Below are positions 11,737-56,642 of a stretch of DNA of 64,000 nt, one piece after another (position 1 is the stretch's first letter; every line of letters begins with the position of its first letter). The stretch spans positions 612 to 64,611 of the forward strand of contig JADHYC010000004.1 of the NCBI GenBank assembly GCA_016782645.1, in the 5' to 3' direction. Under the pieces are notes generated by a model that saw nothing but the letters and a program-made list of their open reading frames with translations, made no database searches and had not been told where the DNA came from. The stretch comes from Fidelibacterota bacterium. Lineage in GTDB: Bacteria > Fidelibacterota > UBA2242. The translations under genes and the position numbers were made by a program.

Positions 11737-11745
11737 GGGATTGAT

Positions 11746-16447: not shown

Positions 16448-16663
16448 AACTTCTAATAACTTTAGCCTGAGAAGTAACAAACCACAGATTTTTTTGTGTT
16501 TCAATAATTAAAATGACTTCGGGTAAATGAAACAACTTGTGAATTTATCACCTTTTCCAATAAAGCTGTTGTTTCTATTTTAACATTGTAATAAAACTTA
16601 CTCTGCATTAAATTTTTCTGAAAGCAAGAAAAATTTAAAACCTGTAAACTATTAGGGAATTGC

Positions 16664-18208
16664 ATGTCAAAATTTTCACTTGTTAAAAGCGCTGCGGTAT
16701 TAGGAATTGACGCTTATATTGTTAATGTTGAATGTAATTTAAGTCGTGCAGAGCTTCCTCGTTTTATAACTGTCGGATTACCCGAAGGGGCTGTCCGTGA
16801 AAGCAAAGAACGGGTTTGGGCAGCAGTAAAAAATATGGGTTATTATATCCCAAGCAATAAAATCGTTGTGAACCTCGCTCCCGCAGATATCAAAAAAGAG
16901 GGTAGTGCTTTTGATTTACCTATTGCTATCGGGATTTTATGTGCAGCCAATCTTGTCCCAAAAGACAAATTGAAGGATTATATTATGCTGGGAGAGCTTT
17001 CCCTCGATGGGGCATTACGCGGTATTAAAGGCACATTGCCAATTTCAGTTTCTGTCAAGGATTCCGGAATAAAGGGAATAATTCTTCCCGTTGAAAATGC
17101 CAAAGAAGCCGCGATAACTGGTGAGCTCTCAATTATTGGGGTAAAATCACTTCGGGAAACTATAGATTTCTTAAATGATGATTATTCACCGGAACCATTT
17201 CATATTGATGTTCAGGCTCTTTTTGAAGAGCATCGACGCTACCAGTTGGATTTTTCTGATGTAAAAGGACAGGAAAATGTGAAACGGTCACTTGAGGTAG
17301 CAGCGGCTGGTGGGCATAATCTGATTATGATTGGTCCTCCCGGTTCCGGAAAAACAATGCTTGCCAAGCGGTTTCCGTCGATTTTACCGAATCTTACTCT
17401 CGAAGAAGCGCTTGAAACCACAAAAATCCACTCTGTTGCAGGTCTTATCCCTTCCGGTCAGGGAATTATTGCTACGCGGCCATTCAGGTCGCCTCATCAT
17501 ACAATTTCTGATGCCGCACTCGTCGGTGGAGGAAAAATTCCTCGACCTGGAGAAGTTAGTTTAAGCAATCATGGAGTTCTCTTTCTCGATGAATTTCCTG
17601 AGTTCAAAAAGAACGTTCTAGAAGTTTTGCGTCAACCACTTGAAAATGGAACTGTTACAATATCACGAGCACAAATGTCACTTACTTATCCATCTTCCTT
17701 TATGCTTGTAGCCGCAATGAATCCATGTCCTTGCGGATATTCTACCGATCCTAATAACGAATGTACCTGTTCCCAATCTCAAATACAAAAATATATGTCT
17801 CGAATCTCAGGTCCATTGCTTGATAGAATTGATATTCATATTGAAGTTCCCGCTGTCAGATTCTCTGATCTTGCAAGTAAATCTCCGAGTGAGACTTCCA
17901 AGTTCATTCGTGAACGCGTTCAAAATGCAAGAGAAATTCAAACAAAACGGTTTAAAGAACTCAAAGGAGTTTATGCCAATGCACACATGGAAACCAAGCT
18001 GATAAAAAAATATTGCCAGATCGATAAAGCAGGGGAATCTCTTCTTAGGACTGCAATTACCAAACTCGGGCTGAGCGCAAGGGCTTATGACAGAATTTTA
18101 AAAGTATCCAGAACAATTGCAGATCTTGCTTGTATGGAACAAATAAGACCAGAGCATTTGAGCGAAGCAATTCAGTACAGGAGTCTCGATAGGCAACTAT
18201 GGCTTTAA
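16664..18208 (+). CDS. comM: YifB/ComM-family Mg-chelatase-like AAA+ ATPase
   Basis: 514 aa. N-terminal Lon-like domain, Walker [12 protein letters not shown], Cys-rich insert (CPCGY…CTC). Confidence 0.9.
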
Positions 18209-18350
18209 TGGAAAAACCAAAAATTACACTAATTTACCGGGAAAGAATGAATGACAATTAATTAGCGAAAATTAGCGTTTATTCGCGGTTAAAAAATTAT
18301 ATTTACAAAAATTATCTACAATACAGTGGCAAATAATTCAGGATATTTAC

Positions 18351-18863
18351 CTATGATTTCTTATCTGATTCTATCTGCTCGTCGGATTTGCTTTTTTTAC
18401 TAACCTTAAACTCACGAATAATAATAAAAATACCAATAAGCGCCAGGATGAGTGGCCAACCCTTCGAAAATAAATCACTCTCTTTTCCAATACCTGTAAA
18501 AATTAGTATAACTCCTGGGATCAAAGGCCACCAATGAGATTTTTTCTCATATAGATAGGCAATTACATAAATTACTACGAAACCGATACCAAGACCGATT
18601 AACTCAAGATTACCAGAACGTCCAAAAACTGTTCCCAGTCCAAGCCCCAACAATAAGCAGCCTGGAATTAGAAAACCGTATTTCTTCTTATAAAAGTAAG
18701 CTATTAGAAATCCAGCGCCGAACAAGAAAAACATTAATGCTTCGCTGTATCCCTCAGCATACTGCAGTACGAAAAAAATTACACCTAACACAATAAGAAT
18801 AATACCTGTAGCAAACTTTTTACTGATTCGCTTCTTCACTGTTTCCTCCTCTTTTATCAACAC
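18351..18863 (-). CDS. hypothetical integral membrane protein (4 TM)
   Basis: 170 aa hydrophobic ORF with Lys-rich termini. No recognisable motif. Confidence 0.5.
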   Translation of the reverse strand: MLIKEEETVKKRISKKFATGIILIVLGVIFFVLQYAEGYSEALMFFLFGAGFLIAYFYKKKYGFLIPGCLLLGLGLGTVFGRSGNLELIGLGIGFVVIYVIAYLYEKKSHWWPLIPGVILIFTGIGKESDLFSKGWPLILALIGIFIIIREFKVSKKSKSDEQIESDKKS

Positions 18864-19027
18864 AACAATGTATTAATAATGAATTTTAAATGGTAAACAT
18901 TTTTTTAGCGGGATATTCCCAGTGCAGGTCTTCTTCATATTATTGGAAGCAATTTTTTTCTTTATTAGATTTAATGTATGTTAATAGCCGCTATAATAAA
19001 TTCTCTTAAAATGAATATGGAGGAAAA

Positions 19028-21676
19028 ATGAAAACAATTTTTTCACGTTATGTGTTTAGATACATACTCATTTTAGTATTGGTTTGCTCTTATGTTAGCA
19101 TAGGTTATTCTAAGGATGACGCTGAACAGAAGCAGGAAATTCCCATTTCATCGTGGTTATTATCTGGTACAATACCGCAACCATTGCCTGTATTCAATGA
19201 AGATAAAAACATAGAAGGCAAGACATTCGCCCTCAAAGACCTTCTCAAATTCGATCAAGCTAATATTAAAAATTTATTACCGGCAAGAGGCGAAAAATTT
19301 GGATGGAGACCCAACTTAGACCTCCAATGGGAAAAAGTGACAGCAGATTCGAGCAATACTATTACTTTCTTAAGCGAAAGTGGAAATATCCCTGAAATCA
19401 ACTATCTGGCAAGTTATATAAATGCGAAGCGCTGGACAAAGGCTAATCTTGAAATTAGTGGAGCACACCTATTCCAAGTTTACATGGATGGTGAGTTGCT
19501 AAATTCCAAAACAAGTTTTGATACACTTAAAGAAAATGATAATCAAGATAAACAAAGCAATATCTCCCATGAAATCAAATTGGAAACAGGGAAACATATT
19601 CTCCTTATTAAATCACTGCATGATCCGGAAAATAACATGCCCTGGAACATCAGTGCTACTCTGAAATTGAGCGAAGACTTCCCAAAAGATGCTCTACAAA
19701 TCAGCACTTCACCAAGGCACGTCATGAACATGAAACATCTATTATACACACCTATAATCTCAAATATTTCTATTTCGCCAGATGGGGATATTGTAGCAAT
19801 TGCATTGACTCATTATGCTCCACCAGATAACGATAAAGAGTCATGGCTTGAATTGCGCAAGGTTTCTGATGGCAGTCTAATACAAACTTATCGTGGTGGC
19901 ATGAGTATTTCAAATATTAAATGAGCACCTGTTGGCAGAAAATACTCCTATACAAGTAACAAAGAAGAAAAATACACTCTTTGGATAGTTGACCTTGACA
20001 AAGGTACTACAACAGCGTTGCTGGAAAACATCAAGGATTTTGGTAGTTACTCCTGGGCACCTGATGGTTCATTCATAATTTACAGTGTAACAGAAAAAGC
20101 CCCTGAAGATAAAAACGGTGTACATCGCTTAAAAGGGATGGAAGATAGACAACCACATTTGAGGAACAGAAACTTTTTGTATATTGTGAATTTACCACAA
20201 GGAACCAGACGACGTTTAACAGCAGGGGAAATTTCTACTGATTTAAATTCAGTAAGTCCTGATGGTAAAAAAATCATATTCAGCCACCTGCTCTCAAATT
20301 ATGAGGAGAGGCCCTTTTCAAAAACTCAGTTCTATATTCTCAATCTTGCTACCTTGAAATTGGATTCACTCTGGACAAGTAAATGGCGTGGATACGTGCA
20401 ATGGTCGCCAGATGGGAAAAAGCTGCTGGTAATTGGCGCTCCAAGCATGTTTGGTGATATTGGAGTAAATGTTCCTGAAGGAACGATTCCAAATGATTAC
20501 GATACACAGGCATATATTTACGATTTCAAAACCGGAAGTATTGAACCAATTACACGAGATTTCGATCCACAAATCAACCAGGCTATCTGGAGCAAAACAG
20601 AGAACGCCATCTATTTTCGAGTTACTGACCGATCCTACGGCAATCTCTATAGGTATGATCTCAAGAAAAAACGATTCAATCTAATTAAAAGCGAAGTTGA
20701 AGTAATGCGCCGTCTGGATATTGCAAATAACAAAGCTGTTGCCGTTTATTACGGTTCAAGCGCTGCGGTACCTTATAAAGCCTATATTATGGATTTGAAA
20801 AAGAAATCACGCCTTCTGATTGATCCCGGCAAGAAAGATTATAAAGACGTTGTTTTAAGTAAAGTTGAACGGTGGACATTCAAGAATGAACGCAATTTTG
20901 AGATTGAAGGTCGTATCTACTACCCACCTAATTTTGATCCAAAGAAAAAATATCCATGCATTGTCTATTACTATGGAGGTACAAGCCCTGTCACACGCGA
21001 TTTCGATGGACGCTATCCCAAGAATCTCTACTCAGCTCAGGGTTATGTCGTATACGTGATGCAGCCCAGTGGTGCAACCGGCTTTGGGCAGGAATTTTCA
21101 GCACTGCATGTGAATGAGTGGGGAACTATTGTAGTAAATGAGATTATTGACGGAACTAAAAAGCTCCTTGCGGCACACCCATTCATTGACAAAAGTCACG
21201 TAGGTTGCATCGGAGCATCTTACGGCGGATTTACAACGGAATTGTTATTAACTAAGACGGATATATTCTCTACGGCTGTATCTCATGCAGGCATCAGCTC
21301 AATTGCCAGTTATTGGGGAGAGGGATATTGGGGCTATGAATATGGCGCTGTCGCTAATGCAAATAGTTTTCCCTGGAATAAAAAGGAGTATTTTATCAAT
21401 CAAAGCGCACTCTTTAATGCTGACAAGATCAATACACCAATTTTGCTAACTCACGGTATGGCAGATACGAATGTTCCGCCCGGCGAAAGTATCCAACTCT
21501 ATACTGCACTCAAACTACTTGGTAGAGAAGTTGAACTTATCCAGTTTAATGGGGAGAATCACTTCATCCTTGACTACAATAAACGCAGCCAATGGACAAA
21601 ATCTATAATGGCGTGGTTTGACAAATGGCTTAAAGAACAGCCTCAATGGTGGGACGACTTATATTTAAGTGAGTAG
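19028..21676 (+). pseudogene. S9-family serine peptidase (beta-propeller + alpha/beta-hydrolase) interrupted by one in-frame TGA at 19922-19924
   Basis: ORFs 19028..19924 and 20018..21676 are in the same frame. The sequence between them (APVGRKYSYTSNKEEKYTLWIVDLDKGTTTALLEN) continues the propeller repeats (WAPDGS, VSPDGKK, WSPDGKK). The C-terminus has an S9 catalytic region (GASYGG…) and the N-terminus has a signal peptide. Confidence 0.7.
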
Positions 21677-22161: not shown

Positions 22162-22447
22162 TTACACACTCCATTTCCATATTAATAATAAATTAAGAAT
22201 AGAGTCTTAAATAACAAACTAAACGGTTAAAAATATTAAAATTGAAATGTCACAGATTATATGCAAAAATATGGTTATTTAACTGCTTGTCCAAGACAAC
22301 AAAATTTTCAACAAATCTATTAAATTGTTTTACCATTTATGCACTCCAAGAAATACCCACATCTCCAAACTCTGAATTGTGAAAAATCACTACTTTGTTG
22401 ATTTTCAACAAATAGAGATGTATATTCAAAAAAATTTGAGAGCAAAA

Positions 22448-23218
22448 ATGAAAAAATTATCAATCATACTCAGCATTTTAATCCTTATTATTGTTGGAAA
22501 TCTCACTGCTCAGGATCAACCTGTATATCCCCAACCTACAGACCTCATAACCATACCAACAGCAGGTATCATACCTCGTGGAGCATACTCAGTCAATGTC
22601 AGGCTTTCTCAAAACGGCGGTCTTATGACAGGAATATCGGCAGGTATTTCAAGCAGATTCATGTTTGGTATTTCCTATGGTGGATCTCAAATTATAGGCG
22701 ATCAAAAAATCATCTGGAACGCACAACCAGGGGTCGAAATTAAGTACAGATTTAGCGAGGAAAATACAAAATTACCTGCAGTGCTTTTAGGTTTTAATTC
22801 TCAGGGATTCGGAGCCTATATAGAAACTACTAAACGTTATGAAACCAAAGCCAAGGGATTTTATGTAGTTGCCAGTAAAAACTACCATTTTTTAGGTAAC
22901 CTCGGGATACATGCAGGTGTAAATTACAACCCTATTGAGGATGGAGACGGAGATAAGGATCCTTCTTTCTTTATCGGGCTAGATAAAGATATCAATCCGG
23001 AAATTTCTTTCTTGGTTGAATACGACGCAGCTTTAAATGATAATGAAACAAATGAAATATCTCTGGGAAAAGGAACTGGTTATCTGAATGCAGGTATTCG
23101 TTGGACATTAGTACAGCACTTTCACTTTGAGCTCGATTTCAATAATATCTTATTAAATCGTGAAAGTATTAATTATTTGACACGCGAACTGAAAATAACA
23201 TTTGTTGAATTTTTTTAA
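22448..23218 (+). CDS. outer-membrane beta-barrel protein (porin-like), hypothetical
   Basis: Signal peptide MKKLSIILSILILIIVGNLTAQ, alternating-hydrophobic strands, C-terminal …FVEFF. Start moved to the internal ATG with a signal peptide. Confidence 0.55.
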   Translation: MKKLSIILSILILIIVGNLTAQDQPVYPQPTDLITIPTAGIIPRGAYSVNVRLSQNGGLMTGISAGISSRFMFGISYGGSQIIGDQKIIWNAQPGVEIKYRFSEENTKLPAVLLGFNSQGFGAYIETTKRYETKAKGFYVVASKNYHFLGNLGIHAGVNYNPIEDGDGDKDPSFFIGLDKDINPEISFLVEYDAALNDNETNEISLGKGTGYLNAGIRWTLVQHFHFELDFNNILLNRESINYLTRELKITFVEFF

Positions 23219-26797: not shown

Positions 26798-27574
26798 TTA
26801 TTGCTTTGCAGATCGACACAGCGAATAATAGATATCCCGTTTCGCATCGTACCATCCCTCGACAATCACGGAGTTCCTGAGTGTTATATCATAAGACTGC
26901 CGCAAGATTTTAGATTCTATTGTAAATCTATCATCTCTTTGAACAGTATGAATAGATTCTGCTTCAATTTCTATATTTTTCCCTAAATCAAACCGTGCAT
27001 ATTCATCGGCATCTTTCCAAGCTCTTACCCAGGAAGAATATCTTGCAACTATCCCAACACCATAAATCCAATCTTTTGAGGTAGGTAATTCTCTTATCCA
27101 TTCAGGCTGAGAACCCCACACTTTTGGCTTTGTTGAATCAAACGAAAGTTTCCCTGTCGATGGATATGCTAACAAAATAAAATATCCATCTTCAGTTAAT
27201 AAAGAATCAACAATGCTGAAATTATTTTTGATCTGAATCAGAATTGATTCTTCATAAGATTGCTCAAAAGTGGGATTTAAAAGCCTTAACTTTCCATCCG
27301 CAAGCTCTTCAACTTCAAAAATTAATTGAATCTGTTTTTGCTTCGCCATGTTCTTCAAAGCAAGGTTTATCGCTACTTGCTCAGCTATAGTAACATCTTG
27401 ATACTTGCCTGAATAACCAACAGAAAACATTGTACCAGCCGGAGCTTCAGGGAGTTGCTCAAACCAGGAAGAGATTACCGTCTGAGATAAAGCCTCCGAA
27501 AGGATCCTGTTGGGAAAAGCTCCGCAAAGTTGTATTACAGCTATTGTAAAAATTACAATACTTTTTCTTTTCAT
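26798..27574 (-). CDS. secreted LPP20-fold protein (paralog 1)
   Basis: Signal peptide. C-terminal block PEWIRELP…DWIYGVGIVARYSS…A…A matches the LPP20/FlgP-like 'PEW…GVG…A…A…A' pattern. Confidence 0.55.
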   Translation of the reverse strand: MKRKSIVIFTIAVIQLCGAFPNRILSEALSQTVISSWFEQLPEAPAGTMFSVGYSGKYQDVTIAEQVAINLALKNMAKQKQIQLIFEVEELADGKLRLLNPTFEQSYEESILIQIKNNFSIVDSLLTEDGYFILLAYPSTGKLSFDSTKPKVWGSQPEWIRELPTSKDWIYGVGIVARYSSWVRAWKDADEYARFDLGKNIEIEAESIHTVQRDDRFTIESKILRQSYDITLRNSVIVEGWYDAKRDIYYSLCRSAKQ

Positions 27575-27819
27575 AATGAAAATACGACCAAACTTGAGTC
27601 AAGTCTTATTAAATTACTTCACCCAATCAATCCTTGATTTGATATTTAGACTAACTTCCATAATTCACAATCTTTTAGTGACTTAACTTAAGTTTGGTTG
27701 ACTTCTGAGAATTCTATAAGATAAACTATATATCATAAGAGATTTGTTCAGAATGGCAAAGAAAGGAAAAGCCTACCCATCCCGAAGTATTGTGACGGGC
27801 AGGCATTTAAGTACTCTTT

Positions 27820-28374
27820 TTACTCTCCTATAGCTTCCAGCTTATCAATCTCTTTTTCAAGGTCATCAAAACTCAGATTGGCTTTCGCCTCGTTATAGAG
27901 TGCTTTCTGTTTTTTTGCCTCATTCAATGTTTCCTGAATTAACGAATTCAAGTTATATTCTGCCAAAGAATAAGCGTGGTATTGACTTCCCTCAGTTTTC
28001 ATCTCTCTTTTGGCAATTCGACACCCACGTAGCACCGTATTAGCAACCTGTTTACTCACTGATGAAGTAAACTCGAGAGCCTCAGCGTCTTCTCCGAGAC
28101 CACTCTGCTGCATGAAGTTTTTCAGCATATTCGAGACTTTTACCTCGATTACTCTCGAGATACCATCTCTTGCACGGGCATCTGAAGCTTCTTTTGCAAG
28201 AGCCATGCTCATCTTTGCTGCATCTCCGGCTTCATAGATGACATCTTCAGCCTGTGGTGGATTAAGGTACCACTCAGGAATTTCCTGCATTTTAGCTTTG
28301 GGTTTTCCACCCCCGCAATTTACAAGCATCAGTGCCAATGGAATCAACATCGCTAAGATTAAAACTTTCTTCAT
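27820..28374 (-). CDS. LPP20-fold lipoprotein (paralog 2)
   Basis: Start at the ATG with GGAGA RBS gives lipobox MKKVLILAMLIPLALMLVNC. PEWYLNPPQAEDVIYEAGDAAKMSMALAKEASDARARDGI motif. C-terminal coiled coil. Confidence 0.6.
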   Translation of the reverse strand: MKKVLILAMLIPLALMLVNCGGGKPKAKMQEIPEWYLNPPQAEDVIYEAGDAAKMSMALAKEASDARARDGISRVIEVKVSNMLKNFMQQSGLGEDAEALEFTSSVSKQVANTVLRGCRIAKREMKTEGSQYHAYSLAEYNLNSLIQETLNEAKKQKALYNEAKANLSFDDLEKEIDKLEAIGE

Positions 28375-28427
28375 AACTTTTCTCCTTCTGTTAAGCATTT
28401 GTTTCTAATTATAATATACTTTTTCTA

Positions 28428-29795
28428 TCAATTAGCTGCACTTTGTAAAAAGGCAGCAAATTTCTTCTTTGATATTTTCAAGTTCTTGTGAGACTTTTCT
28501 ACTGCTGCCTGTCGAGACCCTTCATTCAGTCCTTTTCCCTTTGCTTTAAAAGAGGCTATGGTTTTACCATCAGAACGATCAATGAGGCTCAGCTTCACAA
28601 CAGATTCGACATAAAACTGTTTACCCATTGGAGAATCTATTTCTTTTTCATTGAAAACAGCAACATTACCCTCTATAACAAAAGGGGCGTCATCAGAAAC
28701 CGAGTAACCATTTTCACTAACCAAACCGGCAAATTTATCCTCAATATTTTTGTATCTGCTCCCACTTTTGTCAACGATATGAATAAAAAAATCAAGGGGT
28801 TCGATTTCAAAAAAATAATGAATAAATATCTCCGATTTAGAAATCAAATCTTTGAAAATATCCGGCAGTCTTGCCATATTTAGAGAGATAATCACTGCAC
28901 CATTTTTACCTATATCATCGGTTGGAACGGCAACAACTCTGAATTCGGCAAAACCATCTGAATTGGTCTCTTTTTTTGCAATCAATTCTCCATTATCATA
29001 TTTCGCTAAAACAGGGAATCTATCCACACCAATCTTCTCTCTGGTCTCAGATTCGTAAAAAACTTTTACTACTAAAGGCATTGACAAAACAGTACCTGAT
29101 TTACCCTTTTGATTTTCACCTGATACAGCAGTTAATTCAATATGAGAAAATAGATCACGCATCTCTGCCAAAATCCCCGGTCCGGTGAACTGCTCAATTA
29201 CAGGGTATTTCTTTCCGGATAAAGCAGTGTAAAGTGCACCTTTTGTGTAAAACTCTGGAATGCAATTTTGTGCATCTATATAATTTTCTACAGACGCAAA
29301 TATCTTTCCCTCAGAAGAAAGTTTTCTAGCACTTCCTACCAATTGTTCAGTTTCTGTTAGAATTTCTCCCATCTCAACTTCAATTCCTGATAAATATTTC
29401 GATTTATTGAGCACAGCAAGTATGTAATACTTTCCTTTTACCTTTTTTACCTTTGCTATCTCAATCCCAGCTATAGTTTCCGAAACTACAGATTTGGTTT
29501 GCGACTTTACTTCAGAAGTTATATATCCCTTATCTCCCTCACGAAATTCTGATTCAATTGTTTCAAGTTCCGACTCAATCTTAACCCTTATCTGTTTAGC
29601 AACATCCGCTCTTGCAAGCTCAATTGCTTCTGTTTTGTTATCTGCAATTCCAACACCCAGGAAAAAATTTGAAGAAGGATACTTTTTATGTTGATTTGTC
29701 TTTGCCCACTCCGGAACCTGAGCAAAAACGGAGGTAAAATTCAATAAAAAAAACATTCCTAAGATGAAGATATTTGAGTTCTTGTGCACAATCAT
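28428..29795 (-). CDS. secreted protein with N-terminal LPP20-fold domain (paralog 3) and about 300-aa extension
   Basis: Signal peptide. VPEWAKT…FFLGVGIADNKTEAIELARADVAKQIRVKI. 29 nt from the downstream gene. Confidence 0.55.
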   Translation of the reverse strand: MIVHKNSNIFILGMFFLLNFTSVFAQVPEWAKTNQHKKYPSSNFFLGVGIADNKTEAIELARADVAKQIRVKIESELETIESEFREGDKGYITSEVKSQTKSVVSETIAGIEIAKVKKVKGKYYILAVLNKSKYLSGIEVEMGEILTETEQLVGSARKLSSEGKIFASVENYIDAQNCIPEFYTKGALYTALSGKKYPVIEQFTGPGILAEMRDLFSHIELTAVSGENQKGKSGTVLSMPLVVKVFYESETREKIGVDRFPVLAKYDNGELIAKKETNSDGFAEFRVVAVPTDDIGKNGAVIISLNMARLPDIFKDLISKSEIFIHYFFEIEPLDFFIHIVDKSGSRYKNIEDKFAGLVSENGYSVSDDAPFVIEGNVAVFNEKEIDSPMGKQFYVESVVKLSLIDRSDGKTIASFKAKGKGLNEGSRQAAVEKSHKNLKISKKKFAAFLQSAAN

Positions 29796-29800
29796 CTCCT

Positions 29801-31069
29801 TTACTCTTCAACAACATTAAGAAGTATCAGTTTGCGAGATATGGATACTTTTTTAACCTCTCCATTTCCCTTATAATTCTTCTTAAAATAGCGATAAATA
29901 TCTGTTGAAGATCTATACTGCTCTGGATTGCACCAAAACTGAACATCATAAGTATAATCAGCAACCACATTCTCTTTATATGTTTTTGAAACCTTTTTAA
30001 CAACATCGCTTACCGAAAATATTATATCTTCAGAATCGTCCATATTGAACACATCACTAACCGTAACAATCATTTTGTACTGAATGCCTTGTTTCAGGTC
30101 CTTTTTCCAGTAATTCATGATACGACTTAAAACCTTATCAATTGCGTCATTCATTGCTTCTTCAATAAGTACAGCGTCAGGTACCAACCTCTCATGACTA
30201 TATCCGGTTTCCGTGCCAAGAAGCCGTCCGGTCGTAGTCTCGTATGCCCTACATGCTACAATGCCTTTTTTTACTCTGCTTGATCCGAGCATCCGTGATT
30301 CGATAGAAACATTATAACTCATATAAACATCACTGCCAATTGATAGTGCCAATAGATAGCCATAATCTTCCTCAGCACCCTCAAGTGCATATTGAGTAGC
30401 AGTTAATTTCTGTATCACCTGCTGCTGCTCAGGAACAATTACTTCATATTTTCTTACGGTTAAATAAGACTCGATGACTTCAGCTGCCTTTTTCAAATTG
30501 GGATCTGTTTTAAGGAGTTCTATCGGTGCCGTTTCACCCTTTGCTTCAGGTATGACCATTATAGATGGTAAGCCAACGGAACCGGCTATCGTTGATTCCT
30601 CAGAAAGGACTCCTTTATTAACAAGACTTTCGGTTATTAATGCCTTATTGATTCTGTAGGTTTTCTCAATTTTTAACTTCTTTCCACCTTCTATCTTGAG
30701 ACGCTTATCGTAATATTCTGCCTCCCATGCAATAAAATTCCGAATGTTACTTTTTATAAAAAACTCTTTCTGTATTTTCTCAAATGCTATCCTTTCTTCA
30801 TCTGTTTGAATCAAAGGGTCTGAACCACCAAGTAAAATAAACCATACTGCTGCTTTCATGGCGTCTGTATTTGCGCTTTTGTCCAATACTTTTGCTTTAG
30901 GTTTTCTGTGCTTTCTATCAATTCCATATCCTGTAGCACGAACCATGACCTCGCTCGGAGAAGTGCTTTCCAATAAAACCACTTCTCTCGAACGTGGAAG
31001 GTTTGATTTTCCCATTACAAGAGATGTGCTTAAAAATAGTGTTGCCATGAAAAGTATTTTTTTCATCAA
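29801..31069 (-). CDS. secreted hypothetical protein (envelope cluster member)
   Basis: 422 aa with signal peptide MMKKILFMATLFLSTSLVMG. 5-nt gap to the neighbour, so operonic. Confidence 0.5.
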   Translation of the reverse strand: MMKKILFMATLFLSTSLVMGKSNLPRSREVVLLESTSPSEVMVRATGYGIDRKHRKPKAKVLDKSANTDAMKAAVWFILLGGSDPLIQTDEERIAFEKIQKEFFIKSNIRNFIAWEAEYYDKRLKIEGGKKLKIEKTYRINKALITESLVNKGVLSEESTIAGSVGLPSIMVIPEAKGETAPIELLKTDPNLKKAAEVIESYLTVRKYEVIVPEQQQVIQKLTATQYALEGAEEDYGYLLALSIGSDVYMSYNVSIESRMLGSSRVKKGIVACRAYETTTGRLLGTETGYSHERLVPDAVLIEEAMNDAIDKVLSRIMNYWKKDLKQGIQYKMIVTVSDVFNMDDSEDIIFSVSDVVKKVSKTYKENVVADYTYDVQFWCNPEQYRSSTDIYRYFKKNYKGNGEVKKVSISRKLILLNVVEE

Positions 31070-31077
31070 ATTCTCCT

Positions 31078-32823
31078 TTAAAAAATCTTTAATTTACTTT
31101 GTAGTATTGCAACTGGGTTAAAGGGCAACGTCGGCGGAGAAAAATGGATATAAAAACCATATGTGGGCCCGAAACTGTATATTTTAGGGACTGCCCAGTC
31201 TACTAAGTTATCCATATCTACTTCGTCCTCATCGTACTTTACAGTCCACCAATCCATTGGGGGAAACAAATTAAAACCTGCAAAAACGCCAACATTGCAA
31301 TCAATATTTACTGCATATTCAAGTCCAAGGTTAAATCTCAGACCAAGACTATTATTAGAAATAGTTACATCTTCACCTTCATAATAATCGTTACTGTGAA
31401 AATCGTATATAGAAAGAACTTGAATGCCAGCAAGTCCTTCTCCGTGTAATGCAAATTGTCCCAAATATACTTTCTTCATAAAACCAACATATCCATGAAA
31501 AACTCCTGCAACACGATTAATTGTTGGAGTATTAGAAAAAAGATCGAGACCACTATCATATATCCGACTATTAATTGGCACAGCACCAGCCGATCCACCT
31601 AATATAAAAAAAGTCTGCCGTTTTTTTGTAAACTGCGCAATATTCCATTGAATATCCATATCAATTCCTATTGCACCTCCTTTGTAATCATCAAAATAGA
31701 CAAGAAATTCTTTATCGGTGTTCAAAACAACACCCTCTTCTATATTCATAGTAAACCATCTCGGCTTCACAGCAATATCTATTCCTAATCTTGGATGTTC
31801 AATAATCATCATTCCTCGAACCCAATCACCTTTTTTGATAGCCCACGCCGAAGAAAGTTGCCCGGCAGATTTTCTGTTATCCGTAACTGTGCCCACGCGC
31901 ACAAACCCCGACTTTTCAAAGCGGATTTTACCATCATTCGACTCTACCCATTCACCCACAAAGAAGGGTTCATCCATCTTTATACCTTCTGCTTTTCCAA
32001 GTGGAAAGCGAATATTTCTTTTCACAACCTCGGCAATTGGTGACTGAAGTTTGAAAATATCTATCTCACGCGTTCTAACTTGCAGGTTCATAGCAAGTGT
32101 CTGTGCTGCTGACCGAAATGCTGAATTATGGTTTTCATCGCTTGCTTCTCCTCTGGCAACGATTTTCTCTATCTTTTCAACACCTGGGTTATCTCCTGCT
32201 ATAAGATGATACCAGATCAGCCCACCTTTTATAGAGACCGTTATTTCTTTTTTATCTTCATCCTTCTTGTCCTTACCTTTTTCAACTTTGTACTTAGAAA
32301 GAAATGGGACATATAAGTATGACGAATTCATTACCTGTTCCAATTGTTCGGCAGTAATTCCCATTTCCTTCGCTTTGAGAACAATGAAGGAATTTTTTTG
32401 GACCTCAGTTACAAGATTTCTTGCTCTAATCTCCTTTTGGACATCTAAAATTTTAATAAGCTCTGAAGCAATGGTTTCATCAATGAGATCACCAATTTCT
32501 GATTCAGAGTAACTCCCTCCCATCGAATAAGAGTTTTTAAATGAACTCTGAACCTTTTCCGGAAGAGGATTATAGTCGAAACGGGCGATTTTGATTCCAT
32601 CGTGAATAGCTGAAAGAAAATATCTTTCGTTTCTATCCGGAAGATGAATTCCTCTTTTAGTAACAAGTAAAACATCGACGTATGATATGGATTTTCGAGT
32701 GTATTTCCCAGTCTGAGCAAATCCGCTACTTACCAGTACAAAAATAAAAATTAGAAAAAAGATTTTTCTTATCCATACCATATTCTTTTGTGGAAGTAAT
32801 TCAGAATCGCTTTTAGAAATCAT
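31078..32823 (-). CDS. hypothetical envelope protein with predicted C-terminal beta-barrel
   Basis: 581 aa with N-terminal signal/TM (FFLIFIFVLVSSGFAQ). C-terminal 250 aa alternate hydrophobic/Gly-rich strands ending …KLKIF. It is the first gene of the five-gene minus-strand cluster. Start may be the internal Met (MVWIRK…). Confidence 0.5.
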   Translation of the reverse strand: MISKSDSELLPQKNMVWIRKIFFLIFIFVLVSSGFAQTGKYTRKSISYVDVLLVTKRGIHLPDRNERYFLSAIHDGIKIARFDYNPLPEKVQSSFKNSYSMGGSYSESEIGDLIDETIASELIKILDVQKEIRARNLVTEVQKNSFIVLKAKEMGITAEQLEQVMNSSYLYVPFLSKYKVEKGKDKKDEDKKEITVSIKGGLIWYHLIAGDNPGVEKIEKIVARGEASDENHNSAFRSAAQTLAMNLQVRTREIDIFKLQSPIAEVVKRNIRFPLGKAEGIKMDEPFFVGEWVESNDGKIRFEKSGFVRVGTVTDNRKSAGQLSSAWAIKKGDWVRGMMIIEHPRLGIDIAVKPRWFTMNIEEGVVLNTDKEFLVYFDDYKGGAIGIDMDIQWNIAQFTKKRQTFFILGGSAGAVPINSRIYDSGLDLFSNTPTINRVAGVFHGYVGFMKKVYLGQFALHGEGLAGIQVLSIYDFHSNDYYEGEDVTISNNSLGLRFNLGLEYAVNIDCNVGVFAGFNLFPPMDWWTVKYDEDEVDMDNLVDWAVPKIYSFGPTYGFYIHFSPPTLPFNPVAILQSKLKIF

Positions 32824-32986: not shown

Positions 32987-35900
32987 ATGATTCGCAATAA
33001 TCTTTCAAATATTGTGCTATCTTTTTCTCTATTGATCCAGGCGCAGTTTGCATTTGGTCAAATAGTAACTTTTAACGAGGTAATGTTCGATGCCCTTGGT
33101 GCCGATTATTATGACGAATTTATCGAGATAGTTAATTACAGCGATTCAACCATATCTCTTCACGGAGCTTATTTATTAATAAATGGTAATGTAGATACTT
33201 TAGACTTTCCAAATTCAGACACTCTTGCACCAAATTCCTATGCACTTATTCTTGATAGAGGCTACTTAATAGGAACTAATTCACACACTTATGATGAGCT
33301 CATTCCAGATAGCACATTATTATTAACTATTCAGGATAATTCTTTTGGGCTTTCGAACAGTGAGTCCAACACTCTATTTCTTATTTCAGAATCCGGAGAC
33401 ACCCTCAGCTTTGTAATCACGACACCTGACCAGGATGCAGGTTATTCGGATGAGAAGATTATAATAGACGGACCTAATGATCCGGGGAATTGGGGTAATA
33501 GCACAACTTTACTTGGAACCCCTGGTTTTAAAAATAGTATATTCCCTAAAGATTATGACCTTGCAATTACAGGGTTTGAAGTAACAACTCCTCAAGAACT
33601 AATCGAAGCAGGAAAACCCGTTGAATTCACTTTAACTGTAACAAATACCGGGCTTTTACACTGTTTGGAAGCAGAAATTTTATTCGGTCAAGACATCAAC
33701 TGTGACTCAATCTTACAATCGGGTGAAATTCTTTTTTCTACAATCAAATCCATTAATGCAGAAGATTCGCTCGTTTTCTTTCCTTCTATTCTTAATCCCC
33801 ATTCTGGTATCTCTTCATTGATCGCAACTGTTATCCTTGAAGAGGATGAATCTTTAGAAAATAATGTAGCATTTCTCAAGCTTCATGTACCTTTTGCAGA
33901 AAATTGCATTGCAATTAATGAGTTTATGTATTATCCCAATCCCGAATTTGGTGGAGAATGGGTTGAACTTTTCAATACATCGTCAGATACATTGAACCTG
34001 AAAGACTGGACAATTTCCGATAAATCAAATGAAGCTATTTTAACACAAAATAATTTCTTTTTGCCACCAGCATCTTATGCAATAATTGCAGATGATTCCT
34101 CACTCTTAGAATACTGGAGTATTAATGATTTTTTCATAGATTGCTTATCTCAATTGCCCACCTTAAATAATACTTCAGATTCTATAATTATCCGGGAATT
34201 GTGCGGAAGAACTATTGATGCGATTGGATATTCAAAAACCTGGGGCTATGCACAAGGGACCTCCTTAGAAAGAAAAAATCCTTTTACAAATAGCAGCGAT
34301 CCTGAAAACTGGGGTTTGTCAACCTCAGATAATGGCGGGACACCCGGCCTACCAAACTCTATTCTTCTAGAGGAATACGACCTTAAATGGTGTCAGGATA
34401 GTTTATATATTTTCCCTGATCACCTGCTTCCGGGTGATACAGCAAACCTCCGAATTGTTCTTCAAAACAACGGGCTAAATAATGCCTGCGATTTTTCTAT
34501 CAAAATCCGTCACCACGAAAATATAGAATCGATTGAGCAGAGCCCTATCATATTACAAAAGTTTTATTACGATACTCTTAAATCTTTTCAGCTCTTATAT
34601 GATACTCTAAAATGGAAAATCAATTCTGCAGGGATGGCTTATCTTCATTACAATATCAATTTTTTACCAGACAACGACCTACAAAATAATGAAGTGTTAT
34701 TGCCTATTCATATCGGATATCCGGATAAAAGCATTGTTATCAATGAGATCATGTATCTTCCTGACGCTGGAGATCCGGAATGGTTTGAGATTTTCAATCG
34801 AAACAATCAAATAGTAAACCTCAAAAATTGGTACTTCAAAGATTCAAACAGCACACTTCATTCAATAACTAATAGCACAGTTCATCTAAAACCAGATTCT
34901 TTTGCTATAATAGCATCCAATGAAAATTTCTACTTAAGATACCCAAATTTTAACGGACAATTAATTCTGCCGGAATCGTTCCCTTCTTTGAACAATATCT
35001 CAGATTCACTGGTAATTATTGATGGTGTTGAACATCATATAGATGCGTTACAGTATTCATCTAACTGGGGAAGTGCAACTGGTATATCTATCGAAAGAAT
35101 AAATCCAGATGGTTTAACTAACAGTCAGTCAAACTGGGGACTTTCCCAGGAGAATGACGGAGCTACTCCAGGCTATGAAAATTCCATTGCTGTTAAAAAT
35201 TATGACATTGCTATTGATTCAATTTTCATTAGCTATTCAAATGTTAAATTGATTGAAGGAGATTCCTTATACATCCATTTAGCGATTAGGAATACAGGGC
35301 TAATTGAAATAAATAATTTTCAGATTCAAATTAAAATTCAAAAACCTGGAGCTTCACCTCTGCCTAATAGCTTCCTGGATACGACGATCACTGTTTCTGT
35401 ACTCATTTATCCGGGAGAATCGTTAGCACAAAATTTTATAGTAGATTCAATACCTGGTGGAATCCATATCATTACTGGTAGTATTATCCTCGATCTTGAC
35501 GAAAATAATTCAAACGATAATAACAGCTGCAAGTTATACGTAGGATACCCTGAAAATTCTGTAATAATAAATGAAGTAATGTATTCACCAGAAAGCGGTG
35601 AATCAGAATGGTTCGAAATTTTTAACCTGAGTAACTCACAAGTCGATCTTAACGGCTGGCAGTTCAGAGATGCTAATGGAAAATCTAATCTTCTTGCTGA
35701 CACAACAACTTATCTCCTGCCCAACAGCTTTATCGTAATTGCTGCAAATAAAGATTTCTTACAATGTTATCCTGATTTTAATGCCGATCTAATTACACCC
35801 TCAAATTTTCCAACATTAAACAACACCTCAGATTCACTTTTTCTTATTGATGCAATAGATTATAATATAGAAATGATTTACTATAAAAAAGATTGGGGCG

Positions 35901-37996
35901 GCGGGGATGGTGTTTCTTTGGAAAGGCGTAATCCACATTCCTTTGCTCTCGATGAGAATAACTGGGGGAGTTCAATATCTGAAGTAGGAGCCACTCCCGG
36001 TCTTCCAAATTCAATATTGAAGTACGACTTTGATCTATTGATCGTTCCCTCATCATTTCTATTCGTTGATTCTATTGCAAAAGTCGGTCAATCCGTTTCT
36101 TTCAAACTTTCTGTAAAAAATAATGGGATTCTACGTTCAAATCCCTTTTCCGTGGAGATATTCAATGATCGAAATAAGGACAGCACCGTTTCACATACTG
36201 AACTCGTTTGGAGTTTATACAATATTCCACCACTTCTACCGGATTCTGTAATAACACTCAGTGGAGATATATATTCCGAAAATTCAGGAAAAGCTAATTA
36301 CATTGCTTTAATTACGACGAGTTTAGAAGAAAATCCGAATGACAATATTTCTTATGCAAATTTACTTGTCACATTTGCATACAATTCCCTTGTTTTAAAT
36401 GAGTTCCTGCCATACCCAAACATAGAGCAAACTGAATTCATTGAGTGTGTTAATATTAGTGATAACGTGATTGACATTTCAGGCTGGAGCTTATTAAACA
36501 ACCGCAGTTGTACAACACTGAATTGCCACACGCAAATACCACCCTATGGTTATCTTGTATTAGCAAAAGACAGCTCATTTTTTAATTATTTCCCTCCATC
36601 AAATGCAACAATCACAATTCCTCAAAAATGGCTTAGTTTAAACAATACATCAGATAAAATAATACTTAAGGATTTAACAGGAAAGACAATAGATTCTTTA
36701 TTATATGACGATACATGGAACTTAAAATCCGGAATATCTTTTGAAAAAATCTTTCCATATCTCAAATCTAATAATGAATCTTCCTGGTCCCTATCAACTA
36801 ATGAAAATGGTGCTACTCCCGGAGTTTTAAATAGTGTCACACCTTTAGCTTATGATCTTTCATTGGACTCACTCGAAACTTCTTCTGATATTGGAGATAC
36901 TTCCTCAACTTTTTCGATTACTTTCTTCATCACTAATTGCGGACAAACAGACTGTTACAATGCCTGTATCAAACTTTTTGAATCCAGCAAGCAACAACTG
37001 AAAATGTTAGAATCAATCGAAATTGAAGAATTATCTCCCGGTGAAAACGACACTCTAAGCTGTTTAATTGGACCATTTCAATCAGGTACACATAATTTCA
37101 TCGCTGCTATTGATTGGGAATATGATGAGTATTCAAAAAATGATACACTTAACTTTTCAATCACAATCTCTTTCAGAGGAGAAACGATACTTATTTCAGA
37201 ATTTATGCCTGACCCTATTGATATTAATACTTCCAACAATTCAATTTCAGAATACATTGAGCTATACAACCCAGGCATGGACAGTATATGTATTAATGAA
37301 TGGCATATTTCTGATAACAATACAGCAAAACCAGTAGAGATTTTTCATCAGAATCTATTGCCACCACATAAATACTTTATAGTAGCGTCAGATTCATCTA
37401 TATTCAACTTTCCTTGCATTAATTACTTTAACACAGTCATTCTACACAATTTCCCATCTCTAAATAATAGTGAAGATGCAATATTTATTACAGACCCCTC
37501 TGAAAAAGTAATAGATAGCCTTCTATACAATGCTACCTGGAAAATAACAAAAGGTATTTCACTGGAAAGGATTTATTTTAACAATCCAAACTCTTATAGC
37601 AACTGGCGATCATCTTTGTCAACCTATGGTGGAACACCGGGGTCTGAAAATAGTGTTACCATAATAAATTCCTTAAAAAAGGCGGGTATAAAAGCGGAAC
37701 CAAATCCATTTTCGCCTGATGGAGATGGAATTGACGATGAAGTTGCTTTCCACTATCAACTTCCTTTCCCATCAGCAAAAGTCACGATAGAGATTTATGA
37801 TTTAGCTGGACGACTAATTTATCGTCTTGCTCATAATTTACCTACTTCATCTGAGGGCGCTATTTTCTGGAATGGAGAGAGTAAATACGGAAAAAGAGCA
37901 AGAATTGGATTGTACATCGTCAGATGCTCTGCAACTGATATCGGTACCAGTAAATCTGTGGCTTATATCACTACTGTAGTACTTGCAAGAAGATAG
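32987..37996 (+). CDS. giant secreted protein: six lamin-tail-domain (LTD) modules alternating with CARDB/Ig-like domains, C-terminal FlgD-Ig/Por-type sorting domain
   Basis: LTD cores INEVMFD…, INEFMYYPNPEFGGEWVELFNTS, INEIMYLPDAGDPEWFEIFNRN, INEVMYSPESGESEWFEIFNLS, LNEFLPYPN…EFIECVNIS, ISEFMPDP…EYIELYNPG. Each is followed by …SLER/SIER…NWG…GTPG…NS. The C-terminus is NPFSPDGDGIDDEVAFHYQLPFPSAKVTIEIYDLAGRLIYRL. Confidence 0.75.
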   Translation: MIRNNLSNIVLSFSLLIQAQFAFGQIVTFNEVMFDALGADYYDEFIEIVNYSDSTISLHGAYLLINGNVDTLDFPNSDTLAPNSYALILDRGYLIGTNSHTYDELIPDSTLLLTIQDNSFGLSNSESNTLFLISESGDTLSFVITTPDQDAGYSDEKIIIDGPNDPGNWGNSTTLLGTPGFKNSIFPKDYDLAITGFEVTTPQELIEAGKPVEFTLTVTNTGLLHCLEAEILFGQDINCDSILQSGEILFSTIKSINAEDSLVFFPSILNPHSGISSLIATVILEEDESLENNVAFLKLHVPFAENCIAINEFMYYPNPEFGGEWVELFNTSSDTLNLKDWTISDKSNEAILTQNNFFLPPASYAIIADDSSLLEYWSINDFFIDCLSQLPTLNNTSDSIIIRELCGRTIDAIGYSKTWGYAQGTSLERKNPFTNSSDPENWGLSTSDNGGTPGLPNSILLEEYDLKWCQDSLYIFPDHLLPGDTANLRIVLQNNGLNNACDFSIKIRHHENIESIEQSPIILQKFYYDTLKSFQLLYDTLKWKINSAGMAYLHYNINFLPDNDLQNNEVLLPIHIGYPDKSIVINEIMYLPDAGDPEWFEIFNRNNQIVNLKNWYFKDSNSTLHSITNSTVHLKPDSFAIIASNENFYLRYPNFNGQLILPESFPSLNNISDSLVIIDGVEHHIDALQYSSNWGSATGISIERINPDGLTNSQSNWGLSQENDGATPGYENSIAVKNYDIAIDSIFISYSNVKLIEGDSLYIHLAIRNTGLIEINNFQIQIKIQKPGASPLPNSFLDTTITVSVLIYPGESLAQNFIVDSIPGGIHIITGSIILDLDENNSNDNNSCKLYVGYPENSVIINEVMYSPESGESEWFEIFNLSNSQVDLNGWQFRDANGKSNLLADTTTYLLPNSFIVIAANKDFLQCYPDFNADLITPSNFPTLNNTSDSLFLIDAIDYNIEMIYYKKDWGGGDGVSLERRNPHSFALDENNWGSSISEVGATPGLPNSILKYDFDLLIVPSSFLFVDSIAKVGQSVSFKLSVKNNGILRSNPFSVEIFNDRNKDSTVSHTELVWSLYNIPPLLPDSVITLSGDIYSENSGKANYIALITTSLEENPNDNISYANLLVTFAYNSLVLNEFLPYPNIEQTEFIECVNISDNVIDISGWSLLNNRSCTTLNCHTQIPPYGYLVLAKDSSFFNYFPPSNATITIPQKWLSLNNTSDKIILKDLTGKTIDSLLYDDTWNLKSGISFEKIFPYLKSNNESSWSLSTNENGATPGVLNSVTPLAYDLSLDSLETSSDIGDTSSTFSITFFITNCGQTDCYNACIKLFESSKQQLKMLESIEIEELSPGENDTLSCLIGPFQSGTHNFIAAIDWEYDEYSKNDTLNFSITISFRGETILISEFMPDPIDINTSNNSISEYIELYNPGMDSICINEWHISDNNTAKPVEIFHQNLLPPHKYFIVASDSSIFNFPCINYFNTVILHNFPSLNNSEDAIFITDPSEKVIDSLLYNATWKITKGISLERIYFNNPNSYSNWRSSLSTYGGTPGSENSVTIINSLKKAGIKAEPNPFSPDGDGIDDEVAFHYQLPFPSAKVTIEIYDLAGRLIYRLAHNLPTSSEGAIFWNGESKYGKRARIGLYIVRCSATDIGTSKSVAYITTVVLARR

Positions 37997-38087: not shown

Positions 38088-39200
38088 ATGAAAAGATTTT
38101 TGAAAGTTTTCTGTGTTTTTCTGATTGTATTTGCCTTTTGTGCCGGTACAATTTCTGCCCAATCTCTTGAAGAGAGATTACAGTCAATGGCAAAAACCAA
38201 TGCGAAATTGTATGTAACACCACTTGTAACTGCATTTGGATCGGGAATGAACAGCGGTTGGTTTCACTCTGCAAAACCTCATAAGCTACTTGGCTTTGAT
38301 GTTGGCGTAAGAATAATGGCAGTTACTTTTCCTGAAGATCAAAAAGTTTTCGATTTTGATATTTCAGCACTCGACTTTACAAATTCAATCACTATTAATG
38401 AAAGTAGCTATGACATTACACTAGCCGCTACCGATTTATATCCTGAAACTGAAGTACCCACCTTTTTTGGAGAAAGTGAAGCGGGCAAAATTTCTGCTAT
38501 ACCCAATGCAAATATAGTTAGTTTAATTGAAACGCAATTACTTAATCAGGGTGTGCCCCAGCAAGTACTCGATCACACCGATACTCAGGATAAACTAAAC
38601 AGTTTTGCTGAACTAATCCCAGACATTCCAACACCCGCAGGAACTGGCTTGGAAATGCTACCTTTGATCGTTCCACAGGCTGCGATAGGACTATCCTTAC
38701 CTATGTTACCGATAAAGGCAGAAATCGTTGTAAGAGGATTACCGGAGATAGAGTTGGAAGATGTTGGGAAATTCAAATTTTTCGGGTTGGGCGGTAAACT
38801 TGCTCTTGACCCCTTCATTCCCATTCCTATGTTTCCAATTAATATTGCTTTGGGTACATACATTCAGAAGATGACCATTGGAGATGTATTTGAATCCAAC
38901 CACTCCCTTTTAAGCTTACAAGTTGGTAAAGATCTCAATTTAGTTCTCCTTGCACTCGGAGTATATGCAGGTGTCGGTTTAGAAAGCTCTAACGTAAAAA
39001 TCAACTATACATACTTTAATGAAGACGACCCGGAAGATATCTTTAATAACACCGAAATCAAATTTGATATAAAAGGTGACAATAAATTCCGGACAACTGT
39101 AGGTGCGCGTGTTAGACTGGCAGTTCTCAACATCAGTGCTGATTACTCAATGGGTGCCGATAATGTTCTCACAATTGGTGCAGGACTTTCAATAAGATAA
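38088..39200 (+). CDS. secreted/outer-membrane hypothetical protein (possible partner of LTD giant)
   Basis: Signal peptide MKRFLKVFCVFLIVFAFCAGTISAQ. Gly/Ala-rich beta-strand segments. 91 nt downstream of the giant gene, same strand. Confidence 0.5.
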   Translation: MKRFLKVFCVFLIVFAFCAGTISAQSLEERLQSMAKTNAKLYVTPLVTAFGSGMNSGWFHSAKPHKLLGFDVGVRIMAVTFPEDQKVFDFDISALDFTNSITINESSYDITLAATDLYPETEVPTFFGESEAGKISAIPNANIVSLIETQLLNQGVPQQVLDHTDTQDKLNSFAELIPDIPTPAGTGLEMLPLIVPQAAIGLSLPMLPIKAEIVVRGLPEIELEDVGKFKFFGLGGKLALDPFIPIPMFPINIALGTYIQKMTIGDVFESNHSLLSLQVGKDLNLVLLALGVYAGVGLESSNVKINYTYFNEDDPEDIFNNTEIKFDIKGDNKFRTTVGARVRLAVLNISADYSMGADNVLTIGAGLSIR

Positions 39201-56632: not shown

Positions 56633-56642
56633 CACTCCAAAC

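Follow-up and report, generated by a model that had tools for sequence, protein, structure and literature searches.

A conserved gene set for FlgT-like, DUF6175 and LPP20 envelope proteins in Marinimicrobia and related phyla, candidate parts of an outer-membrane-anchored periplasmic scaffold

Introduction

A stretch of 64,000 nucleotides (nt) from a Fidelibacterota bacterium (assembly GCA_016782645.1, contig JADHYC010000004.1, positions 612 to 64,611; hereafter the window) carries on its minus strand five neighbouring genes, all of which encode proteins with signal peptides, and which lie divergently from a gene for a giant protein with LTD domains. What such a set of secreted proteins might build, and whether it serves the giant next to it, is the question that this locus raises. 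An initial annotation had taken the proteins for paralogous LPP20-fold secreted lipoproteins accompanied by a β-barrel protein, and had proposed a CsgG/LPP20-type outer-membrane complex dedicated to exporting or anchoring the giant. Here we report that the five genes, which we call G1 to G5 in their order on the minus strand, belong to a conserved and uncharacterised gene set of Marinimicrobia and related phyla whose domains are members of known families. The parts list mirrors that of a flagellar outer-membrane ring or disk, with FlgT-like G1 and G2, a FlgP-like G4, a tandem FlgP-like G5 and a composite G3, and we propose that the cluster might specify a periplasmic scaffold held at the outer membrane, independent of any flagellum.

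The outer rings of high-torque flagellar motors are a textbook example of added complexity. On the origin of the H-ring and basal-disk proteins, the study of the Campylobacter motor goes no further than placing FlgP in a broad family (PMC12222027). Should the proteins described here form a ring, they would be a candidate, open to testing, for a relative of the H-ring and basal disk outside the motor, and would add a new and abundant part to the known envelope of phyla that have received little study; should they not, the domain make-up of the DUF6175 proteins and of an unnamed barrel family is still defined. The locus is relevant both to the evolution of flagellar motors and to the envelopes of the Fibrobacterota-Chlorobiota-Bacteroidota (FCB) group. 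Our literature search found DUF6175 and this gene set in no paper, and likewise no paper on LPP20 together with CsgG/DUF4384, while a broader search on LPP20 in Bacteroidetes returned nothing relevant.

Results and Discussion

Layout of the cluster

The five open reading frames (ORFs) of the initial annotation were confirmed on the minus strand, and are listed here with their domains (aa, amino acid residues). None of G1-G5 is matched by an NCBIfam model.

31078..32823, minus strand: G1, 581 aa; signal peptide, predicted FlgT-like periplasmic region, predicted outer-membrane β-barrel, C-terminal helix
32781, minus strand: alternative start of G1 at Met15, which may be the true start
31789..32715, minus strand: FlgT-like periplasmic region of G1 (aa 37-345), from the AlphaFold2 model
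31138..31788, minus strand: outer-membrane β-barrel of G1 with ~10 strands (aa 346-562), from the AlphaFold2 model
29801..31069, minus strand: G2, 422 aa; secreted DUF6175 protein with three predicted domains
30038..30568, minus strand: DUF6175 domain of G2 (aa 168-344), from Pfam
28428..29795, minus strand: G3, 455 aa; secreted; LPP20 domain, helical linker, immunoglobulin (Ig)-like domain and CsgG/TolB_N-like domain
29409..29714, minus strand: N-terminal LPP20 domain of G3 (aa 28-129), from Pfam
about aa 330-455 of G3, minus strand: C-terminal CsgG/TolB_N-like domain
27820..28398 (192 aa), or 27820..28374 if started at MKKVL (184 aa), minus strand: G4, small FlgP-like lipoprotein with a C-terminal helical tail
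28315..28317, minus strand: Cys codon of the G4 lipobox LVNC
26798..27574, minus strand: G5, 258 aa; secreted; two tandem LPP20-like domains (aa 34-143 and aa 154-257), minus strand

G1, a predicted FlgT-like module fused to a barrel

G1 was modelled with AlphaFold2 from an alignment of 68 homologues (predicted local distance difference test score, pLDDT, 88.7; predicted template modelling score, pTM, 0.83). The model consists of a mixed α/β periplasmic region with a small β domain at its end (residues about 40-342), some 10 long strands arranged as a barrel (residues 348-561, pLDDT mostly >90), and a short conserved helix predicted at the C-terminus (570-579). When the model was compared with the PDB using Foldseek, the top match was Vibrio FlgT (3w1e, E 6.6e-10 over 336 columns), followed by FlgT within the cryo-electron microscopy structure of the LPHT ring (8z5n, E 3.4e-9) and then by OmpT, Pla, EspP, OpcA, OmpW and NspA. 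G1 has the marks of an outer-membrane β-barrel, the last strand ending in ...YIHF and the protein itself in F. The C-terminal β-strand region ending in Phe that had initially been noted is therefore borne out as a predicted barrel and a terminal Phe, although the last strand ends near 561 and the helix at 570-579 comes after it. By size the barrel falls into the small, monomer-type OmpT/OpcA class, and we see no evidence of a secretion pore.

Although no Pfam model matches G1 of the window, OMP_b-brl (PF13505) does match 26 of the 68 homologues, and the periplasmic domain family has no Pfam family of its own. A profile of the periplasmic region retrieved 857 cluster representatives (50% identity) at E<=1e-3, of which 249 reached E<=1e-30. 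Among the top 150 matches almost every protein has a length of 520-610 aa, and therefore the periplasmic module and the barrel travel together in a large unnamed family. Two G1 paralogues stand in tandem ahead of G2 in L044 (9962..13324) and L066 (10007..13632), and in Kryptoniota relatives G1 has an additional N-terminal CarboxypepD_reg-like domain.

G2 and the DUF6175 fold

The protein encoded next, G2, is a member of Pfam DUF6175 (PF19672), which it matches with 35.3 bits against a gathering cut-off of 23 and over profile positions 3-201 of 293; the same model was matched by 51/51 of the G2 homologues scanned. Similar to G1, the AlphaFold2 model of G2 (pLDDT 86.1) found FlgT as its best Foldseek match in the PDB (E 1.9e-8 for 3w1e and 2.0e-8), after which came CsgG (2.8e-6), CT253, GNA1162, PelC, HpaA, LpoB and LptE. 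As modelled, the fold of G2 is that of the TolB_N/CsgG-like group of outer-membrane-associated proteins. The Foldseek alignments of G1 and G2 to FlgT extend over 336-340 columns, with TM-scores of only 0.21-0.33.

LPP20 domains in G3, G4 and G5

The remaining three genes had been noted to share a sequence block typical of LPP20 proteins, and both Pfam scores and profile comparisons indicate that this block is real and not due to chance. Against the LPP20 model (PF02169) G3 scores 44.3 bits, G4 24.7 and the second half of G5 18.3; with a gathering cut-off of 25.9 bits, G3 passes, and G4 (just under) and G5 fall short. The model is matched by 28/29 G3 homologues. We then compared profiles built from homologues drawn from 86 related loci, using hhalign, which connects G4 and G5 to G3 with 96-99% probability: residues 27-135 of G3 align to G4 (probability 98.8%, E 5e-17), and G4 aligns both to residues 154-257 of G5 (98.9%, E 1e-17) and to residues 34-143 (97.8%, E 7.5e-13). 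Because both halves of G5 match G4, we assign two LPP20 domains to G5, a point absent from the initial annotation; the internal repeat is also detected directly when one half is aligned to the other (98%, E 4e-14). By these sequence comparisons the three genes hold four LPP20 domains in total.

Additional support for the assignment of G3 comes from its family profile, which matches the LPP20-family protein in PDB 4kzs at E 1.8e-9. Among the 29 G3 homologues, Pfam also detects scattered Ig-like domains, namely bMG3 in 9/29 and Big_1 in 4/29, and CsgG in 1/29 at E 1.2e-4. FlgT_N-type proteins encoded at LCP-89 loci have a C-terminal domain in common with G3 (hhalign probability 76%, E 2e-5). This suggests a FlgT-like layout for G3, in which an SHS2-type N-domain is joined to a TolB_N-like domain.

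G4 fits the description of FlgP, an outer-membrane lipoprotein with a single LPP20/SHS2 domain. Its lipobox, initially described as clean, has a Cys (LVNC) that is present without exception in 30 homologues drawn from several phyla, although the residue preceding this Cys is non-canonical. In other respects the picture of a series of lipoproteins has to be narrowed: all five proteins are indeed predicted to be secreted, but G4 is the only conserved lipoprotein, since the signal peptides of G1, G2 and G3 are of the ordinary kind both in the window and in the majority of relatives, and the Cys of G5 is confined to its closest relatives.

Conservation of the gene set

Scanning one genome per species, we found 77 homologous loci, which belong to Neomarinimicrobiota, Calditrichota, LCP-89, Kryptoniota, Latescibacterota, Fibrobacterota, Ignavibacteriales, Chlorobiales-related lineages and Bacteroidota. 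The counts below were obtained by ORF calling and with profiles made from the hits, the denominator being the loci with sufficient flanking sequence; we call a locus close when its G1 is at least 49% identical, and the remainder distant.

G2 adjoining G1: 19/19 close loci, 29/37 distant loci
G3: 17/17 close, 18/34 distant
G4: 17/17 close, 12/30 distant
G5: 17/17 close, 6/26 distant
LTD giant upstream: 16/17 close (15 adjacent), 0/44 distant

Across phyla the genes are kept together as a unit, and their G1-G2 core recurs in FCB-group phyla. The order G1-G2-G3-G4 is retained in Marinimicrobia, Kryptoniota, Bacteroidota, Fibrobacterota and Ignavibacteriales; the smallest version, found for example in WOR-3, consists of G1-G2, and some distant G1 homologues are solitary amid housekeeping genes. 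At the other extreme, in Kryptoniota-type loci (L004, L007 and L045, about 15000..21000) further genes are added to the cluster, for DUF454, a G5-like protein of 320 aa, a true lipoprotein CsgG, an LPP20+DUF4384 protein of 650 aa, and a Peptidase_C14 (caspase-like) protein in fusion with an outer-membrane barrel. This last fusion has the same design as G1, a periplasmic domain followed by a C-terminal barrel. No conserved enzyme, ATPase or inner-membrane component accompanies the cluster in the neighbourhoods that we examined.

Three close homologues of the cluster lie on contigs of 1-5 kb labelled as Auribacterota ('Candidatus Theseobacter exili'), 'archaeon' and Verrucomicrobiota (L012, L017 and L060). 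These are most likely mis-binned Marinimicrobia contigs rather than signs of a wider taxonomic range.

Comparison with flagellar rings and disks

In the Vibrio flagellar motor 26 FlgT subunits encircle the LP-rings, and the lipoproteins FlgP and FlgO form 58-fold concentric rings along the outer membrane's inner surface (bioRxiv 10.64898/2025.12.02.691832). In Campylobacter the basal disk is built by FlgP, and FlgQ resembles two fused FlgP units; FlgP, Lpp20 and FlgT have an SHS2-like fold and are placed in a broad SHS2/LPP20 family, in which ring formation is linked to an insertion that follows the SHS2 helix (PMC12222027). The cluster resembles the Vibrio H-ring in that FlgT is the best fold match of both the periplasmic part of G1 and G2, that G4 is a small LPP20 lipoprotein as is FlgP, that several paralogous small-domain proteins are encoded together, and that all of the proteins are predicted to be periplasmic or tethered to the outer membrane. 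However, G1 is predicted to be an integral barrel whereas the H-ring parts are soluble or lipid-anchored, G3 has additional Ig-like and CsgG-like domains, and the cluster has no sequence-level FlgT match, no flagellar gene context and no LP-ring to encircle. The likeness to the Campylobacter basal disk lies in G4, with a single LPP20/SHS2 domain and a lipid anchor, standing beside the two-domain G5 much as flgP stands beside flgQ, and in the stretch that leads from the SHS2 helix to the following strand: in FlgP it forms the ring-building hairpin, and in the cluster a stretch of suitable length aligns to the LPP20 profile. Here too the motor context is missing, and a profile of 30 G4 homologues searched against PDB sequences gave no FlgP match and no informative match.

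A second source of comparison is provided by a 380-aa protein encoded directly upstream of G1 in LCP-89-type loci, a position that differs from that of G3, which lies downstream of G2. This protein exceeds the Pfam FlgT_N cut-off of 28.8 bits with scores of 32.0 and 37.3. It also matches, at E 2.5e-6, PDB chain 9hmf_C (a 171-aa 'Lipoprotein, putative'), in our reading a FlgP of Campylobacter type, and weakly Vibrio FlgP. With these matches and the C-terminal domain that it has in common with G3, it is the sole sequence-level bridge from the cluster family to FlgT and FlgP; hhalign found no sequence relationship between the FlgT_N-type proteins and G1 or G2.

The TolB_N-like group has its own ring formers, such as the CsgG nonamer and the PelC dodecamer, and ring formation at the outer membrane is a tendency among its members. 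We propose that G1-G4, often joined by G5, specify the components of a single periplasmic complex associated with the outer membrane and conserved in FCB-group bacteria. G1 would be fixed in the outer membrane by its 10-strand barrel, with the FlgT-like three-part module hanging into the periplasm, and G4 would be fixed by its lipid, while G2, G3 and G5 would be soluble in the periplasm and attach to G1 and G4. Because the same domain types build the H-ring (FlgT, FlgP, FlgO) and the basal disk (FlgP, FlgQ), and by analogy with CsgG and PelC, we further propose that the complex is a homo- and hetero-oligomeric ring or plate beneath the outer membrane; it would act as a structural scaffold or collar, neither as a motor part nor as a pore, and independently of the LTD giant. 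We give this outer-membrane-anchored scaffold about even chances of being correct.

Several observations weigh against it. Pfam FlgT_N and FlgT_M, as well as FlgT_C, match neither G1 and G2 nor any of their 68 and 51 homologues at E<=0.1, and profile searches with G1 and with G2 against PDB sequences returned no informative match and no FlgT. With hhalign we found no sequence similarity between G1 and G2, nor a sequence relationship of G3 to either. The TolB_N/CsgG-like fold is also present in proteins that are not ring scaffolds, for example LpoB and LptE. In favour of a scaffold outside a motor, flagellar genes are absent from the ORFs of at least 150 aa in the 64-kb window and from the Pfam-annotated neighbourhoods of five homologous loci, which is the range that this result covers.

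Going a step further, the cluster could represent a flagellum-independent, barrel-anchored ring or disk of FlgT/FlgP-type proteins in FCB bacteria, being either a pre-existing envelope structure of the kind that later gave rise, by recruitment, to flagellar H-rings and basal disks, or else a collar for type IX secretion or for the anchoring of giant surface proteins outside Bacteroidota. This is a speculation that we consider possible, if on the unlikely side.

Links to type IX secretion

Some of the distant loci point in a different direction. Five species-level genomes (L009, L041, L042, L043 and L047, about 1000..13000 in each) share a conserved array of seven co-directional and tightly spaced genes, in the order of a Peptidase_C25 giant of ~1700 aa with a C-terminal domain (CTD) of the type IX secretion system (T9SS) (PorU-like, 223 bits), a 357-aa UPF0164/FadL-like protein (PorV-like), a 260-aa protein, an SLBB protein, the 380-aa FlgT_N protein, G1 and G2, where the labels PorU-like and PorV-like stand for Pfam family hits only. 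At another locus (L071) co-directional Por_Secre_tail proteins lie on both sides of G1. Across the distant loci CTD proteins, detected with a home-made T9SS CTD profile, occupy 10/86 positions adjoining the cluster versus 17/324 elsewhere (odds ratio 2.4, one-sided Fisher p 0.036, relatedness being ignored although L041-L043 are related). The array suggests a link of the G1-G2 pair to type IX secretion in LCP-89-type bacteria. The three observations, along with the likely CTD of the LTD giant described below, make a type IX link the most interesting open alternative to the scaffold, even if the evidence for it is weak.

In its full form this alternative holds that the cluster is a T9SS accessory in non-Bacteroidota FCB phyla, namely a platform for PorU/PorV-type attachment or for the anchoring of CTD cargo, of which the LTD giant would be one client. 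The FCB group, over which the family ranges, is also the range of the T9SS. However, the enrichment is weak, the adjacent CTD genes are often convergent rather than operonic, CTD proteins are common in these genomes, and many loci have solely housekeeping neighbours; moreover, no known T9SS core gene was identified beside the cluster of the window. We therefore regard a T9SS accessory as rather unlikely. Two further relationships were considered and rejected: the DUF6588 protein encoded after the LTD giant (see below) shows no similarity to the PorV-like gene product of the LCP-89 loci, and the LTD giant and the C25 giant have only the C-terminal domain in common.

The LTD giant

The gene that lies divergently from G1 (32987..37996) encodes a protein of 1669 aa with six LTD domains, CARDB and a C-terminal domain of FlgD_ig/CHU_C type. 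When scanned alone, the C-terminal 198 aa match FlgD_ig with 27.5 bits (cut-off 27) and CHU_C with 24.6 (below the cut-off of 27), and this region can be aligned to the CTD found in a Peptidase_C25 protein (E 3e-5). It is followed in the same orientation by a DUF6588 gene (38088..39200), the product of which has a signal peptide and is β-rich up to its C-terminus. From its sequence DUF6588 looks like an outer-membrane barrel, and the pair might resemble a cargo and its cognate outer-membrane partner.

The initial annotation saw in the cluster a dedicated device for exporting or anchoring this giant, citing a shared promoter region as a sign of the link. Within the close Marinimicrobia clade the two are indeed co-conserved, the giant being upstream and divergent in 16/17 loci and directly adjacent in 15, and the flank on the LTD side is conserved, unlike that on the G5 side. 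Yet synteny is wide beyond the giant as well, extending to DUF6588 in 12 loci, to TerB-DnaJ in 12 and to a peptidase S46 in 6, and the giant is found in none of the 44 distant loci that keep G1 and have upstream sequence. In the closest species representative (L010, G1 77% identical) genes for a tricorn-like protease and a C69 peptidase are placed between the giant and G1, and because of this a shared promoter region is dispensable. We therefore read the adjacency as clade-level synteny, the cluster being conserved without the giant. Since the giant is missing from the distant loci and has both a likely T9SS-type CTD and a co-oriented gene for a putative barrel partner of its own, nothing beyond this synteny supports a dedicated device for its export or anchoring; in addition, the G1 barrel belongs to the small OmpT/OpcA size class. 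Such a device is in our view improbable, although a clade-specific functional tie between the giant and the cluster may exist.

CsgG- and Pel-type exporters, Lpp20 and flagellar motors

The fold of the G2 DUF6175 domain, and probably that of the G3 C-terminal domain, is shared with the group of CsgG, GNA1162 (DUF799), PelC and LpoB, which raises the possibility that the cluster is a CsgG/curli-like or PelBC-like outer-membrane exporter of a fibre or polysaccharide. The Foldseek matches of G2 to CsgG and PelC are in line with this, as are the single G3 homologue that matches Pfam CsgG and the Kryptoniota-type loci, where a real CsgG gene, the LPP20+DUF4384 protein and the caspase-barrel fusion are added to the cluster. 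The window itself, however, lacks a homologue of the Kryptoniota CsgG; Pfam CsgG (PF03783) matches none of G1-G5 at E<=1, and 0/68 G1 and 0/51 G2 homologues. G2 and G3 are not lipoproteins, substrate genes are absent, with neither amyloid-subunit nor polysaccharide-synthesis genes conserved nearby, and the G2 model, as read from its secondary structure, has no evident transmembrane hairpin insert. We accordingly assign a low probability to an exporter of this kind, and of the CsgG/LPP20-type complex that had been suggested at first, what stands after profile and fold checks is an envelope set of LPP20, FlgO/P/T and CsgG folds, while the Pfam CsgG match and the evidence for a secretion pore are wanting.

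The Lpp20 (HP1456) cluster of Helicobacter pylori is a further point of comparison. Similar to that cluster, LPP20-type secreted proteins are encoded side by side here, and the membership of G3 in LPP20 is seen in its match to 4kzs; the partners are different, being a predicted FlgT-like barrel protein and a DUF6175 protein, and so are the phyla.

Chlorobiales and Fibrobacterota, both represented by metagenome-assembled genomes that contain the family, are largely non-flagellated. That the cluster is a genuine flagellar motor accessory, equivalent to the H-ring or basal disk, agrees with the FlgT-like folds and the FlgP- and FlgQ-like domain layouts, but in view of this distribution, of the lack of flagellar genes in the window and the annotated neighbourhoods, of the missing FlgT Pfam matches, and of a Vibrio FlgT that has no fused barrel (bioRxiv 10.64898/2025.12.02.691832), we hold it to be very improbable.

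Transcription signals and the G4-G5 gap

The short spacing of 5-29 nt that had been described is found for G1-G2 (8 nt), G2-G3 (5 nt) and G3-G4 (29 nt), the last becoming 53 nt with the start at 28374 that was initially assumed for G4. G4 and G5 are separated by 245 nt with two features inside:

27771..27804, minus strand: terminator-like hairpin and U-run immediately 3' of the G4 stop codon
27587..27698, in the G4-G5 gap: 112-nt element with 13-nt terminal inverted repeats (ACCAAACTTRAGT)

The hairpin has an 11-bp stem (-20.8 kcal/mol, z -3.3), was overlooked by a simple consensus scan, and is retained in L010. The 112-nt element, which occurs once in the window and twice at the corresponding position of L010, folds into a long hairpin (-29.8 kcal/mol, z -3.4) and looks like a miniature inverted-repeat element. 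Because most relatives have a gap of ~50 nt, or overlapping genes, at this position, we consider the long gap a local insertion, and because it holds the terminator-like hairpin and the repeat element, the layout here is probably one of four genes plus one, so that G5 may be transcribed separately in this genome. An Rfam scan found no RNA elements in or near the cluster, and a sigma-70 promoter scan, with sites rarer than in shuffled sequence, was uninformative for this phylum.

Other features of the window

A few kb from the cluster, a 279-aa ORF (22379..23218) adjoins genes for a TPR/RMD1-like protein and a GH20 hexosaminidase, and is a weak match (22.4 bits, below the cut-off of 24) to YjbH, an exopolysaccharide-related outer-membrane protein. 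At the other side of the window a tRNA gene (56560..56632) lies beside genes for a phage-type integrase (56887..57942, minus strand) and a DUF5906 protein (59632..61653), with a lower G+C content beyond 58 kb, and the region 56560..61653 is probably an integrated mobile element.

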